Sequence record: OQ938541.1
DNA: 64,000 nt
Strand: one strand, 5' to 3'
From: Escherichia phage vB_EcoP_PE006
The first letter of the stretch is position 1. Each line of letters begins with the position of its first letter. The notes under the pieces were generated by a model. It was not told the origin of the DNA. It did no database searches and saw nothing but the letters and a program-made list of their open reading frames with translations. Position numbers and translations under genes: made by a program. This document shows, in pieces, positions 32,268 to 35,327 of this stretch.

Positions 32268-32436
32268 AGTTCAGCGAGTTCTAAATAAAACTCAGCTTCA
32301 TCAGGACGTCCTTGTTCATTACAGATGGCGCTCTGACGATAACACCAATCCGATGGCATCTCTTCCACTTCAATCTCCTTATTATGAACTAATCAATAAG
32401 ACTAGTTCATTTGTTTTCTAAACTTTCAGTCCTGAA

Positions 32437-32589
32437 TCAATGTGTGTGCATCCAATTCAATCCAATCTGACAATCAGATGCCAGAGGACATTCCATGTTC
32501 AAGTACTCACCAGCTTTCTTAACACAAAGCTCGGTATGTTCTTTGAGTTTATGTACATCATTACGGTTCACTGAGAATTGGCCCTCATC
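32437..32589 (-). CDS. DNA polymerase exon 2 (C-terminal 50 aa)
   Basis: No start codon; translation DEGQFSVNRNDV...CQIGLNWMHTH ends like family-A polymerases (G.NW..H); joins exon 1 to form the HDE motif. Confidence 0.7.
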   Translation of the reverse strand, partial: DEGQFSVNRNDVHKLKEHTELCVKKAGEYLNMECPLASDCQIGLNWMHTH

Positions 32590-33196
32590 CATTTATGTTA
32601 TTCCCAAATTACTTCGGGTATCGGACTATATCATAACAGCATAGCTAATTTGCTGTTGTTGGCGCTTCGAGGGTTTCCCTGTTAACCCCCTACTCCCGCA
32701 GGATAGTCTCTACACTTTCCACTTTCGAATCCATCTACAAGCGATTCCAAAGCTCACACCAAATCTTTCTGCAAGAGCAACACCAGTACATTCATTATTA
32801 AGCCAGAACTCTTTAGCAGCATCCTGTCTTTCTCTGTTTCTACCAGTATTTGATTCTATGGCATGTGCACTACCTTCTAATATCTCTAGATGATCAGTGT
32901 TACAACATGCCCTATTCTTGCATTTGTGATTAACTTCGTAGCCGTCAGGAATACTTCCAAACTTCTCTTCCATGACATACCTATGATACATGACCCATTT
33001 GCCATTTATCACTTTTCGAAAGTAGCCATCTTTATTTAATTTGTGTGAGATAGGGATGATACATCCTGTGCTAGTTGTTTCTAGCACTAGATCTTTCTTA
33101 GCCATATCACCTCCTAATAGCTTAGCTCGGTATTGCCCTCAACTTAATGGTCGGGTTTCACCGAGTTCACCAACTTTTACATGCACAATGAAGTTT
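32590..33196 (-). mobile_element. group I intron in the DNA polymerase gene
   Basis: Exon ends ...AUGCAU with U at the splice site; intron nt 11-16 GUGCAU can pair with it (P1, U-G wobble); AGACUA (32704-32709) and GAUAUAGUCC (32623-32632) match P7 strands; terminal G before exon 2. Confidence 0.7.
32710..33105 (-). CDS. intron-encoded HNH homing endonuclease
   Basis: Own SD (AGGAGG); YEVNHKCKNRACCNTDHLE HNH core; lies inside the intron. Confidence 0.75.
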   Translation of the reverse strand: MAKKDLVLETTSTGCIIPISHKLNKDGYFRKVINGKWVMYHRYVMEEKFGSIPDGYEVNHKCKNRACCNTDHLEILEGSAHAIESNTGRNRERQDAAKEFWLNNECTGVALAERFGVSFGIACRWIRKWKV

Positions 33197-34888
33197 ATGC
33201 ATATCAATTACCTTAGCACAGCGAACCCCATCTTTCTCAATCCACTTGTTAAGGAACATCATAGCATATTTCATAACAACAGCACCAGCACATTGCAGGA
33301 GAGTGTTAAGTGCTTTATGAACCATAACTTTACCAGTGGCATCTCGTCTCATTGTAATCTTACGACCATCAACACCAATCAAGTACCCTTGAGCAGCTTT
33401 CTCTGTCATACGATCAATGAGGATTGCAATACATGGGTTCTCTGCCAAGAAACGTGCTCGCATCACTGAACCTTCGTCAGCCCCACCACCTACAATTGAA
33501 CCGAGCTTGGCATCACCAGCACCATAGTTGAATGCGTAGATAAATGTCTTAGCGTTGTCACGAGTAGGAAGACCAGCAAGTTTCTGGTTGTGGGAGTGGA
33601 TATCACCTTCAAGGAGAATATCACGATACATAATAGCAGAAGCTAAACCACGCTCTGCCAGAGCTTTCTTAGCTGGATTATTCTCTTCGATTGCTTCAGC
33701 AAGCATATCCCTACACTCTTTAATGAGGTAGTGTGCAAGCATACGCAATTCTAATCCAGAACCATCATACCCTAAGAATACTTCTTTACCAGCGGGTATG
33801 TAATATTTGTAAGCACCTACAGGTTTGTCTTTCTTCCCCGGCTTACCTTTCTCATAAATTACGTTAGTACCTTTTCGTATATAACAACCATCAGGAACAA
33901 CGTTAGTAATAACGAAAGGACGAGAGTGATCATCATCTGAGTTATAGTCAGATTCAAACAAACTGCGACACTCGTGACCAAACAAACCACGGGAGGGAAT
34001 ATTAACCACGATACGATGTTTGAATCGAAAAGTCGGCGTAGCGCAGCTGTTAGCTTCTGCCGAAAGTTTACCATCTTCGCGTTCCTTTGCTATGAGTCCA
34101 CTAATAAGACCTAGCCTGTGAGCCGCTACAACGCGTCTCTTAAGCAAACTTCCGACACTCCCTAGCTCACCCCCTAACCCTTCTTCAAGAGTCTCCTCGA
34201 GGTTTGTAGGAGCTGTAGGCCACTTGTTTGAGGTAGCTAGTGCTATCTTAATCTCATCAAAAGTGATAGGTCTACGTCGGTTAGGATTTAAACCTAAACC
34301 AAATACATAAGCCTTCATATAGTTCTTAGTCTTAAACCTAAAATGCTTCTCTAAGAACTTCCTAATATCAGCGTCAACCATCTCGGCTGTCTGCTTCTGT
34401 TTAGCATTACCTCGCATCCAAGCTGAATACCATGCTTGGTATGTTCCATACTTTCGCATATCTTTCTTGATTTCAAAAGTATTCCAAGGCTTCTTAGATA
34501 CGTTAAACTCTGGAGGAAGAAAGCCCTCATCCATAAGGGCTTCTTTAACTCGTGCATCTTTCGATGGGTCAAAGTCCACGTATTCAACACAGGTGAATGC
34601 TCCACCAATGTCTTCTCTCTTAAGACCAACTCTATCACAATAGGCTTGAGGCCACTTCTGTAAAGCTCCAGACTTCTTAAATGGCTTCATATAAGTAGAG
34701 CCATCTAATCTCATCTTAGGTAAGAGAGGAATCAGTTCTTTGTCAATATTAACAATAATCTCTTTAAGGAGGTGAACATACCACCGAGCATTTCTTCGGT
34801 TGAAACTCACTCCGTGCTTCGCTTGCTTAGAGATTATATCAGCGACAGTCATCTCTGTCAAAAATGGGAGAGCGTCCGGGTTGCTCAC
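33197..34888 (-). CDS. family-A DNA polymerase, exon 1 (polymerase domain only)
   Basis: GTG start with AAAGGAG SD; motif A LGYDGSGLELRMLAH; motif B RDNAKTFIYAFNYGAG; no 3'-5' exo motifs at the N-terminus. Confidence 0.85.
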
Positions 34889-34904
34889 TTTATACTCCTT
34901 TAAA

Positions 34905-35327
34905 TTATTGGTAAATCAAATCCGTAAATGCTTGATTGTCTTCTATCACATCTAACACGGTAGCTTCATAACTGTAAGCCCTAACCGCCCCGTTAACAAC
35001 TATCCGAGGAGTAGGTGGAGGTGGTGCATGGTTAGCCCTAGCTTCACGAGGTTGCTCTCGTACTAGATGAGCCACAACCCTTTGGTTAGCGACTTCTTCT
35101 CTTTCTCGAATAGCTCTCTGGATATAAGCCAGCTTCATGCCCCAAGCCTCTTCGAACTCTTGAGGGTGTTTATCACTGATAACCACATACTGACGTTCAG
35201 GGATACCAGAGCGAATCTCTGATAATAGCTCATGGAACAAATCCAGTTCATGTTCAGTGAGATTCATTTCGATATCATCCCACTTGAGAACTAAGAAACG
35301 GTTTTGGTGTCTAGCTGGTAATGGCAT
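34905..35327 (-). CDS. hypothetical protein
   Basis: 140-aa ORF immediately upstream of the polymerase. Confidence 0.4.
   Translation of the reverse strand: MPLPARHQNRFLVLKWDDIEMNLTEHELDLFHELLSEIRSGIPERQYVVISDKHPQEFEEAWGMKLAYIQRAIREREEVANQRVVAHLVREQPREARANHAPPPPTPRIVVNGAVRAYSYEATVLDVIEDNQAFTDLIYQ

Follow-up and report, generated by a model that had tools for sequence, protein, structure and literature searches.

A DNA polymerase gene interrupted within motif C

The polymerase locus of Escherichia phage vB_EcoP_PE006 (OQ938541.1) raises the question of which polymerase is made from a gene whose catalytic motif C is divided, with its His codon at one side of a 607-nt insert and its Asp-Glu codons at the other. 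The window analysed here is the whole 64,000-nt stretch of this DNA. A first-pass annotation had proposed RNA splicing as the answer, and the coordinates that it gave were all found to be right, with every element on the minus strand. As judged from its sequence, the insert is very probably a mobile self-splicing group I intron of subgroup IA2 that carries an HNH endonuclease ORF and interrupts motif C of the polymerase.

33197..34888, minus strand: DNA polymerase exon 1, 564 codons with a GTG start, the last being the His codon CAU of motif C
32590..33196, minus strand: group I intron, subgroup IA2, 607 nt, without P2, terminal G (omega-G) at 32590
33110..33115, minus strand: Shine-Dalgarno sequence AGGAGG of the HNH ORF, 4 nt upstream of its AUG
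32710..33105, minus strand: intron ORF for a 131-aa HNH homing endonuclease, looped out of P6a
32437..32589, minus strand: DNA polymerase exon 2, 50 codons (32589..32440) plus the stop codon (32439-32437), opening with the Asp-Glu of motif C

Exon 1 matches the Pfam family DNA_pol_A (E=1.1e-13), and its motifs A and B, both recognized in the first-pass annotation, align with motifs A and B of T7 gp5. Without splicing, the polymerase frame continues for 9 codons (27 nt) into the insert beyond the His codon (33199-33197), giving an ORF (34888..33167, minus strand) of 573 aa with the terminus ...VIDMH-KLHCACKSW*. Many group I introns have a stop codon at once after the 5' splice site, unlike the 9-codon read-in seen here. 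Exon 2 can be aligned with the C-terminus of T7 gp5 as far as the final His. When the exons are joined after the His codon, motif C is rebuilt at the junction as H|DE (mHDEgq aligned to vHDEiq of T7), and the result is a 614-aa family-A polymerase that is colinear with the uninterrupted polymerase of Bas92 and identical to it at 608/614 positions. The predicted spliced junction reads ...GATATGCAT|GATGAGGGC... (...AUG CAU|GAU GAG...), and the predicted junction peptide is VIDMHDEGQFSVNR (VIDMHDEGQF) versus ...VIDMHKLHCACKSW in the unspliced frame.

The intron boundaries were set by direct reading together with protein alignment against intron-less alleles; a MAFFT nucleotide alignment, in which exon 2 of the intron-less sequences was misplaced, was rejected as a source of boundaries. 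At the predicted junction, ATGCAC|GAYGAG is found in four Kuravirus alleles without the intron (in Bas92, NJ01 and IMEP8, the site sequence is GTAATTGATATGCACGATGAGGGCCAG), while all intron-bearing alleles have CAU, as is needed for the U.G pair at the splice site. Homologs ending naturally at ...CKSW had been named in the first-pass annotation as a finding that would refute splicing; the intron-less relatives read through exactly at the junction, and thus homologs do not end at ...CKSW.

The last three bases of the intron, AUG (32592-32590), are in frame with exon 2. Consequently, the earlier description of exon 2 as a 50-codon startless ORF is correct as to the 50 codons but not as to the strict lack of a start, and this AUG accounts for the 51-aa "DNA polymerase" fragment annotated in GenBank relatives. 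The same AUG raises the alternative that the gene is simply fractured by an endonuclease cassette, with no RNA splicing, and that polypeptides of 573 aa (...HKLHCACKSW) and 51 aa (starting at AUG 32592-32590) associate non-covalently. An in-frame ATG before exon 2 does formally permit its separate translation, the GenBank records of relatives carry two "DNA polymerase" CDSs, and there is precedent for phage genes split by endonuclease genes. However, this AUG has no Shine-Dalgarno sequence upstream and is missing in most members of the intron family (...GAAAG|GAU), and the break would part His from Asp-Glu inside a single catalytic motif. Given also the structural evidence below, a fractured gene is highly improbable.

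Bypass at the protein or translational level, by an intein or by ribosomal hopping, might likewise restore the polymerase, as it might for any interrupted essential gene; nothing specific to this locus favors it. The polymerase frame of the insert contains stops, the first being UGA at 33169-33167, the HNH ORF lies in another register and starts at a codon of its own, the Pfam search gave no intein domain, and 607 nt far exceeds known bypass gaps. Such a mechanism can hardly be credited. Thus, as read from the alignments, the correct gene product is the predicted spliced 614-aa polymerase, which lacks an exonuclease domain and has its HDE motif intact.

Evidence for a group I intron

In a covariance-model scan, one of the checks suggested in the first-pass annotation, the Rfam model Intron_gpI (RF00028) gave the sole RNA match in the 64 kb (E=0.0024 across the whole window; E=1.3e-4 locally); the score of 28.7 bits, however, does not reach the gathering threshold of 50 bits. 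Annotated family members that bear an ORF also score below 50 bits (29.9-45.0; K1F 35.7, 13a 37.9, Bas102 45.0), whereas an ORF-less 225-nt homolog at the same polymerase site reaches 61.2 bits, above this curated cut-off. The low score can thus be put down to the lack of P2 together with the 396-nt ORF that occupies P6a. The existence of 225-nt ORF-less versions at this site is also at odds with a gene fractured by an endonuclease cassette. The Rfam alignment of the 5' half was rejected because P2 and P3 there fall within the HNH ORF and P4-P6 are nearly deleted, while P3 (GUUGGUG, 33174-33168) and P4-P6, which lie upstream of the ORF, covary. An explicit model, including the P3/P7 pseudoknot and P10, was instead tested on 13 homologous sequences.

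33181..33202, minus strand: P1, exon AUGCAU (33202-33197) with guide GUGCAU (33186-33181), U.G at the splice site
33187..33192, minus strand: P10 5' strand UUCAUU, pairing with GAUGAG, the first six bases of exon 2 (32589-32584)
33168..33174, minus strand: P3 5' strand GUUGGUG, pairing with CGCCAAC (32664-32658)
33126..33165, minus strand: P4-P5 domain, with P4 CUCGGUG/UACCGAG and P5 CCC/GGG plus a lineage-specific extension
33117..33125, minus strand: 5' strands of P6 (CU) and P6a (CUAU), with partners AG (32716-32715) and GUGG (32722-32719) at the end of the HNH ORF
32624..32708, minus strand: 3' catalytic core, with P7 GACUA (32708-32704), P7.1 UCC-UGCG-GGA, GUA, P7.2, P3', P8, J8/7 and P7'
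32658..32664, 32635..32657 and 32624..32628, minus strand: 3' segments of the core, namely P3', P8 and P7' (UAGUC), respectively
32603..32618, minus strand: P9 hairpin CCCGAA-GUAA-UUUGGG

Of 698 cells (modelled pairs), 98.6% form, against 34-46% in controls with the partners slid. Compensatory changes on both sides are seen at 17 modelled pairs, and the observed values were reached in 0/500 shuffles. Since the P5, P7.2 and P8 stems vary in length between lineages and fall out of alignment register, only their base-proximal shared pairs were counted, and the covariation figures are thus conservative. RNAalifold without guidance finds P1, P3, P4, P5, P6, P6a, P8 and P9. The earlier call of a group I intron is thereby borne out, and a mere cassette would leave unexplained why the non-coding parts of the insert keep this fold with its 17 compensatory pair changes.

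The elements that had been listed as visible by eye, namely the P1 pairing (AUGCAU/GUGCAU), AGACUA, GAUAUAGUCC and the terminal G, are all present. P1, which also appears in the MFE fold, has its U.G pair invariant in 13/13 sequences and a distal pair that covaries, A-U (4) versus G-C (9); it is connected straight to P3 via UGUAAAA. In P10 (6 bp), 92% of cells are paired and two pairs change on both sides. All cells of P3 are paired (100%), with compensatory changes in 5/7 pairs, and the UGA that stops the exon-1 frame (33169-33167) overlaps its 5' strand. P4 is always paired and (near-)invariant, hence uninformative on covariation, and compensatory changes occur in 2/3 pairs of P5, in 2/3 pairs of P8 and in 4/6 pairs of P9, which is also present in the MFE fold. 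P7 and P7.1 are likewise always paired, but they are invariant and so provide no covariation evidence.

P6 comprises only 2 bp in the model, one of which covaries (C-G in 9, U-A in 4), and P6a has 2 unpaired cells; in ORF-less homologs, P6a is closed by a short hairpin. A long-range P6/P6a that encloses the ORF is preferred: RNAalifold recovers it, and both the ORF-less homologs and the covarying C-G/U-A pair speak for it. A local hairpin, CUAAGCUAUUAG, was considered as P6 and rejected, as it is absent in the T7-like homologs. The core agrees with the Rfam consensus AGACUA...AUAUAGUC. Between P7 and P3' lies P7.1-GUA-P7.2 (UCC-UGCG-GGA GUA GGGGG...CCCUC, 32703-32669), whose stems are paired in all sequences while the loops differ (UGCG, UUUG, UAAG, GAAA, GUAA). 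In PMC3428280, the mark of subgroup IA2 is given as two additional helices, P7.1 and P7.2, which are joined by G-U-A and located between P7 and P3', and the intron has them. The terminal G (32590) is present in 14/14 homologs.

It could still be argued that the intron is of group I descent but decayed, splicing inefficiently here and leaving the polymerase crippled or dependent on a helper or host factor. The window copy has the lowest Rfam score of the family (28.7 bits), its P7.2 is shorter than in T7-like members, and the exon-1 frame enters the core by 27 nt. Nevertheless, every modelled pair forms in the window sequence, and the same intron (92-100% identical) occurs in several phages that form plaques and were isolated independently (pEC-N1203-2Af.1, PAS59, 1-6af/bf, FH3). 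Moreover, in the parts of the window examined (positions 31.5-36 kb and 42.7-46.4 kb), no other polymerase gene is seen, the HNH reading frame shows no disruption, and a relative with diverged exons has an identical intron. Decay is thus very unlikely, and a functional ribozyme, whose splicing we infer from its structure, is the reading followed below.

The endonuclease ORF and the separate exonuclease gene

The first-pass annotation had also pointed to an HNH ORF with its own Shine-Dalgarno sequence, and this view was upheld. The predicted protein matches Pfam HNH_3 (E=8.6e-12, aa 40-76, including the conserved H..N..H residues, EVNHKCKNRACCNTDHL) and PHROG 6254 (E=1.8e-41), and it is 54-61% identical in amino acid sequence to the intron ORF products of T7-like phages; a search of PDB sequences with it gave no match. 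GGAGG of its Shine-Dalgarno sequence is kept in all homologs. The ORF runs right up to P7, its last codons and stop codon doubling as J6/7 and as the 3' strands of P6 and P6a. The 5' strand of P6a could pair with either of two partners, its 3' strand at the end of the ORF or the HNH start codon. In a model built on this pairing, translation of the endonuclease and splicing could be mutually exclusive on one transcript through switching of the P6a strand.

The 3'-5' exonuclease had been assigned to a separate gene about 9 kb from the polymerase gene, as is indeed the case.

44062..44616, minus strand: 3'-5' proofreading exonuclease, 184 aa
46400..44610, minus strand: primase-helicase gene, adjoining the exonuclease gene

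The exonuclease has a Pfam DNA_pol_A_exo1 domain (E=1e-8) and aligns with residues 3-178 of T7 gp5 (E=1e-11). According to PMC9965538, Kuravirus-like phages in general encode their exonuclease separately.

Distribution and mobility

The intron occurs in only 7 Kuravirus-group phages (9/105 matching records). Taken together, its family counts roughly 25 members in IMG/VR and 57 in GenBank, and the P7-P7.1-GUA signature is also seen at roughly 24 IMG/VR loci away from the polymerase site. Relative to the closest relative, pEC-N1203-2Af.1, it shows 0/607 differences, versus 45/1845 in the flanking exons (Fisher p=4e-6), and the nearest exon differences are 7 nt before the intron and 11 nt after it. 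The divergence test uses the pEC-N1203-2Af.1 comparison; that with 1-6bf was left out because its counts were distorted by a 186-nt indel located downstream of the gene. An intact HNH ORF, together with an intron identical to that of a relative with diverged exons, indicates a recent successful transfer, and the intron thus looks recently mobile.

A wider hypothesis is that one ribozyme-plus-HNH unit is moving today between distant phage lineages, namely Autographiviridae (T7-likes), Gordonclarkvirinae, the Grimontviridae phage Vp_R1 and KP34/Edwardsiella-type podophages. In this model, it would home into the ~12-nt motif C sequence TGCAYGAYGAR, kept by every family-A polymerase, and the P1 guide (A-U versus G-C) and peripheral helices would be retuned with each jump. 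We give this proposal about an even chance of being correct.

Proposed mechanism

Established group I chemistry suggests the following course of events. In the pre-mRNA, the guide GUGCAU would pair with the last six bases of exon 1, AUGCAU, to form P1, with the U.G wobble at the cleavage site, and P3-P9 would fold round the P3/P7 pseudoknot. Free guanosine bound in P7 would attack the 5' splice site, exon 2 would be aligned by P10 (UUCAUU with GAUGAG), and the terminal G (32590) would then enter the G site, with ligation of the exons to give ...AUG CAU|GAU GAG.... Translation of the spliced mRNA would yield the 614-aa exonuclease-less family-A polymerase with HDE intact, proofreading being supplied from the separate gene. 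The 131-aa HNH endonuclease would be expressed from the intron by way of its own Shine-Dalgarno sequence and AUG in the P6a loop. By its predicted activity and specificity, this enzyme presumably cuts or nicks the intron-less alleles (CAC|GAT) of co-infecting relatives, and repair would copy the intron in (homing).

Annotation and significance

None of the Kuravirus-group records examined carries an intron annotation. As had been foreseen for unspliced annotation, close relatives are annotated with truncated or split polymerases: the intron-bearing records of pEC-N1203-2Af.1, 1-6bf, PAS59 and SU7 show the polymerase as two fragments, accompanied by either a hypothetical protein or a "homing endonuclease", and those of ECBP2 and 1-6af/FH3 look alike in the match lists. 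A search of the literature on an intron in Kuravirus, phiEco32, ECBP2 or SU7 found no description, and a 2023 review of the Kuravirus group makes no mention of one.

The main value of these findings is practical, in that the genome annotation can be corrected to one spliced 614-aa polymerase; the intron reveals no new mechanism. In addition, the site-881 intron family of T7-like phages now has hosts in a second podophage lineage, which is unrelated to the first and has a polymerase that lacks an exonuclease domain. Intron-plus, intron-minus, ORF-less and decayed-ORF alleles form a clean natural series, in which homing between families at a catalytic motif could be examined along with co-adaptation of the guide.

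Comparison with known systems

By sequence comparison, the intron is a homolog of those that occupy this polymerase codon in the T7-like phages K1F, 13a and Bas102; homology was found to the annotated introns of K1F, 13a, CLB_P1 and Bas102. Nucleotide identity to the T7-like gene-5 introns is 65-68%, although the flanking polymerase is just 25-32% identical, and the helices are common and in register, with compensatory changes. The insertion point, CAU|GAU GAG, aligned with HDE of T7, follows the His codon of motif C and precedes the Asp codon, at what is site 881 of E. coli Pol I. Self-splicing introns of PhiI and W31 were reported in 2004 at this polymerase site 881, His|Asp-Glu of motif C, and as summarized in PMC3428280, their IA2 hallmarks are the lack of P2, P7.1-GUA-P7.2 and an ORF in P6a. 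Matched to PhiI/W31 (AY769989, AY769990) by reported site and architecture and through annotated T7-like relatives, the window intron is assigned to this family; the shared features are site 881, no P2, P7.1-GUA-P7.2, and an HNH ORF of ~131 aa in P6a with its stop abutting P7. It differs from the T7-like introns in a retuned guide, with A-U rather than G-C at the distal P1 pair, in a P5 that is 9 nt longer, a truncated P7.2 and a longer P8, and in its 3' end, AAUG, which creates the in-frame AUG, unlike the ...GAAAG|GAU of most family members. The hosts of PhiI/W31-type introns are T7-like, whereas the window host belongs to Gordonclarkvirinae (Kuravirus-like) and has a polymerase without an exonuclease domain. 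With this phage group, an intron family previously known from T7-like phages gains a new host lineage.

The td intron of phage T4, with I-TevI, is also of subgroup IA2, and its endonuclease ORF lies in the P6 region with the 3' end overlapping the P6a/P7 core, as described in PMC3073962. However, its host gene is that for thymidylate synthase, its endonuclease is of the GIY-YIG type rather than HNH, and it has P2 and P9.1/P9.2 extensions. We take its P7-P7.1-GUA-P7.2 and J8/7-P7' to be very similar to those of the window intron and its 3' end to be ...AUAAUG.

Finally, the introns of the Bacillus phages SPO1, SP82 and Bastille and of cyanophage Pf-WMP3 (encoding I-HmuI, I-HmuII, I-BasI and I-PfoP3I) likewise combine a group I intron with an HNH endonuclease in phage family-A polymerase genes, at conserved functional motifs, according to PMC3428280. 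Their insertion site is 674, which belongs to the fingers subdomain, and not 881, and the SPO1 intron has its ORF in P8 instead of P6a. Their endonucleases have been shown to be nickases, whereas the HNH protein of the window is a predicted endonuclease.

Organization of the polymerase locus

The window derives from a Kuravirus-like coliphage (Gordonclarkvirinae), whose nearest record is Escherichia phage pEC-N1203-2Af.1 (97.9% identity over 32300-35100). The first-pass annotation had proposed a polymerase split at motif C by a group I intron, and all of its coordinates were borne out when the sequence was re-read. An insert (32590..33196) lies between exon 1 (33197..34888) and exon 2 (32437..32589), and the relevant features are as follows.

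34888..33167, minus strand: polymerase ORF, 573 aa, GTG start; family-A motifs A and B, then stop
33105..32710, minus strand: HNH ORF, 131 aa; HNH_3 E=8.6e-12, PHROG 6254 E=1.8e-41
32703-32669, minus strand: P7.1-GUA-P7.2, UCC-UGCG-GGA GUA GGGGG...CCCUC
32589..32440, minus strand: exon 2, 50-codon stretch; matches the last 46 positions of the Pfam DNA_pol_A profile
44616..44062, minus strand: 3'-5' exonuclease ORF, 184 aa; DNA_pol_A_exo1 domain, E=1e-8

The start region of the HNH ORF reads AGGAGG-UGAU-AUG, and its product is a putative endonuclease. The insert ends in AUG, which is in frame with exon 2; this accounts for the annotation of a 51-aa 'DNA polymerase' fragment in relatives. The exon-1 frame runs on for 9 codons into the intron (33196-33167, minus strand) before a UGA that overlaps the P3 5' strand and J3/4; consequently, a read-through ribosome would cover P1' and P3. 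In the K1F intron, by contrast, UAA directly follows the splice site. Just 3' of the polymerase stop, a 68-nt spacer (32436-32369, minus strand) contains the inverted repeat AUGAACUAG...UUAGUUCAU. Here NJ01, IMEP8, and 1-6bf have additional small ORFs (one or two; 192 and 366 nt), which are missing from the window and Bas92; the spacer is another indel hotspot adjoining the polymerase gene.

The polymerase N-terminus aligns to T7 only from about residue 296, and the protein therefore lacks an exonuclease domain. That this activity has a separate gene, as first proposed, is supported by the domain match of the 184-aa ORF and by its alignment to T7 gp5 exonuclease domain residues 3-178. The gene adjoins that of the primase-helicase; its separate existence has already been published and is not new. 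A 470-aa ORF (42705-44117, minus strand) overlaps the exonuclease ORF at its end, has a weak match to the PolyA_pol head (nucleotidyltransferase; E=9e-4, below cut-off), and is probably the 'nucleotidyltransferase' named by the BASEL paper for the Gordonclarkvirinae replication locus.

Splice boundaries and spliced product

The protein obtained by joining 33197 to 32589 has 614 aa; it is colinear with the uninterrupted Bas92 polymerase, which continues past the junction, and identical to it at 608/614 residues. Residues 421-614 align to T7 gp5 496-704 (solved structures; E about 1e-32), with mHDEgq over the T7 vHDEiq and the alignment extending to the C-terminal His; the junction therefore falls between the His and Asp of motif C, and the proposed rebuilding of HDE by splicing holds. 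An unspliced product would be without the catalytic Asp-Glu. Four intron-less alleles (Bas92, NJ01, IMEP8, and Bas93) read GA(T/C)ATGCAC|GA(T/C)GAG at the site, while the window, pEC-N1203-2Af.1, 1-6bf, PAS59, and SU7 read ...ATGCAT|607 nt|GATGA(G/A). Thus, the His codon is CAC without the intron and CAU wherever it is present, exactly what the U.G pair at the 5' splice site needs. An intein or translational bypass is excluded because the insert has in-frame stops.

A group I fold backed by covariation

Thirteen intron cores, trimmed of the central part of the ORF, were aligned; their sources are Kuravirus-group phages, T7-likes, Vibrio phage Vp_R1, Aeromonas phage PT2, Klebsiella phage RCIP0053, and Edwardsiella phage DT115P1. 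Unguided RNAalifold gave P1, P3, P4, P5, P6, P6a, P8, and P9, and P1, P4, P5, P8, and P9 were obtained independently when the window RNA was folded as a single sequence. In an explicit model, which adds the P3/P7 pseudoknot, P7.1, P7.2, and P10 to the RNAalifold helices, 98.6% of 698 cells are paired; sliding the 3' partners by 1-3 columns lowers this to 34-46%. Two-sided changes that keep pairing occur at 17/54 pairs (five covarying pairs in P3, four in P9), and 0/500 shuffles attained the observed values. No variation is seen in P7, P7.1, or most of P4, which are therefore uninformative in this respect. The P1 pairing noted at first reading, with its U-G at the splice site, is sustained: the U.G is invariant (n=13), and the distal pair is A-U with exon AUGCAU in Kuravirus-group phages and Vp_R1 and G-C with GUGCAU in T7-likes.

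The RCIP0053 and DT115P1 introns have an extra hairpin, ACGUC-GAGUAAUU-GACGU, at the P2 position (peculiarities at alignment columns 30-51 and 150-158). Their HNH ORF ends 7 nt sooner, but GGUGUAG is still present downstream of it, ahead of P7, and this sequence is therefore conserved for RNA (P6'/J6/7), not coding.

Rfam Intron_gpI is the sole RNA family match in the whole window, at 28.7 bits; its E-value is 1.3e-4 when 3.5 kb are searched and 0.0024 for all 64 kb. Since this is below the gathering score of 50 bits, controls were scored. Introns of T7-like records with joined CDSs also fall below threshold (K1F 35.7, 13a 37.9, and Bas102 45.0 bits), but an ORF-less 225-nt homolog at site 881 (the polymerase insertion point in E. 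coli Pol I numbering) reaches 61.2 bits. The shortfall is thus due to the ORF-bearing, P2-less architecture, and the sub-threshold score is not evidence against a group I fold.

It could be supposed instead that the polymerase is fractured and made as two polypeptides. This is disfavoured: the AUG before exon 2 has no Shine-Dalgarno and is not kept across the family, ORF-less introns are known at site 881, and a non-coding RNA fold is kept by compensatory changes.

Evidence for mobility

The host gene has diverged more than the element it carries. Relative to PAS59, the flanking exons are 76% identical and the intron 92%; comparison with T7-likes gives 65-68% identity for the intron, about 54% for the exons, and 25-32% for the polymerase protein. 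Against pEC-N1203-2Af.1, there are 0/607 intron differences and 45/1845 exon differences (Fisher p=4e-6); the exon differences nearest the intron lie 7 nt upstream and 11 nt downstream. Only 9/105 polymerase-matching records (7 phages) have the intron. Some 25 more copies at site 881 are found in IMG/VR, including two ORF-less 225-nt versions (L058, L034) and one of 419 nt with a decayed ORF (L048). Intron-plus, intron-minus, ORF-less, and decayed-ORF alleles thus cover the stages expected of the homing-intron life cycle. A decayed, non-splicing intron is disfavoured: several viable phages, each isolated independently, have near-identical copies, and there is evidence for recent transfer. Judged from sequence, the insert is very probably a self-splicing homing intron.

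Other introns nearby or similar

L005 985-1653, minus strand: Bas93 intron (PQ850593; absent from the window)
L058 8689-8917 and 9375-9599: two group I introns, scoring 69.1 and 61.2 bits, of which the second is the ORF-less site-881 version of 225 nt
L020 1427-1676: Rhizobium phage RHph_N3_13 (MN988507) group I intron, 83.6 bits, splitting a ribonucleotide reductase (RNR) gene

In Bas93 and Bas94, the same polymerase gene is interrupted by a different group I intron of 706 nt (Rfam 43.9 bits), which carries an 'endonuclease VII'-like ORF and splits motif B (...RDNAKTFIY|AFNYGAG). Across the phage group, then, introns occupy at least two sites in this gene. Both introns in the polymerase gene of L058, a T7-like contig (3300045988_051581), are ORF-less. 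Part of the RHph_N3_13 intron matches P3-P5 of the window intron (intron nt 17-77) at 82% identity; the gene split in that phage is entered as two 'partial' RNR proteins, and an adjoining ORF is labelled 'Srd decoy of host sigma factor', probably a mislabel for the intron or flanking ORF. The exact P7-P7.1-GUA-P7.2 signature GTAGAGACTATCC(N4-6)GGAGTAGG occurs in 51 viral contigs, about 24 of them not at the polymerase His|Asp-Glu site (IMG/VR loci L022, L023, L025, L026, L033, L035-L037, L039, L040, and others); these presumably represent the same ribozyme type in other phage genes.

Comparison with known introns

The word 'intron' does not occur in the 2023 Kuravirus-group review, the 2025 BASEL paper mentions only 'homing endonuclease insertions' in the Gordonclarkvirinae replication locus, and other literature searches found no intron description for Kuravirus-group phages. 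Thus, the intron appears to be undescribed in this group; it is mis-annotated in every intron-bearing Kuravirus-group record examined. As a biological entity, it belongs to a well-known kind. With the intron alone as query, copies 92-100% identical are found in pEC-N1203-2Af.1, 1-6af, 1-6bf, FH3, and PAS59, and copies about 85% identical in SU7 and ECBP2; gene 5 inserts of many T7-like phages and a few others match at 65-68% over 53-99% of its length. Exon 1 ends (A/G)TGCAT and exon 2 starts GAYGAR in 14/14 members examined, and the deposited records of K1F, 13a, CLB_P1, and Bas102 have joined polymerase CDSs.

Polymerase group I introns have been reported in the T7-like phages PhiI and W31 (Bonocora & Shub 2004, via PMC3428280, PMC3073962). 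In PMC3428280, they are placed at site 881 and in subgroup IA2, without P2, with GUA linking P7.1 and P7.2 and the HNH ORF I-TslI in P6a. The window intron has every one of these features: P1 is directly joined to P3, and the HNH ORF lies between the P6a strands, with its UAG stop abutting P7. In the MFE fold, the HNH start region AUGGCU pairs with the P6a 5' strand AGCUAU (33121-33100, minus strand; 5' part of the intron), which puts the Shine-Dalgarno in a loop; this pairing is kept only in part among homologs. As an alternative to P6a, it could let a transcript either be spliced or have its endonuclease translated, but not both. Sequestration of the ribosome binding site has been reported for PhiI/W31 (PMC3073962, refs 54-58). 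Relative to T7-like members, the window intron has a P5 longer by 9 nt, a longer P8, a truncated P7.2, and a retuned guide sequence; it is a member of the PhiI/W31-type family in a new host lineage.
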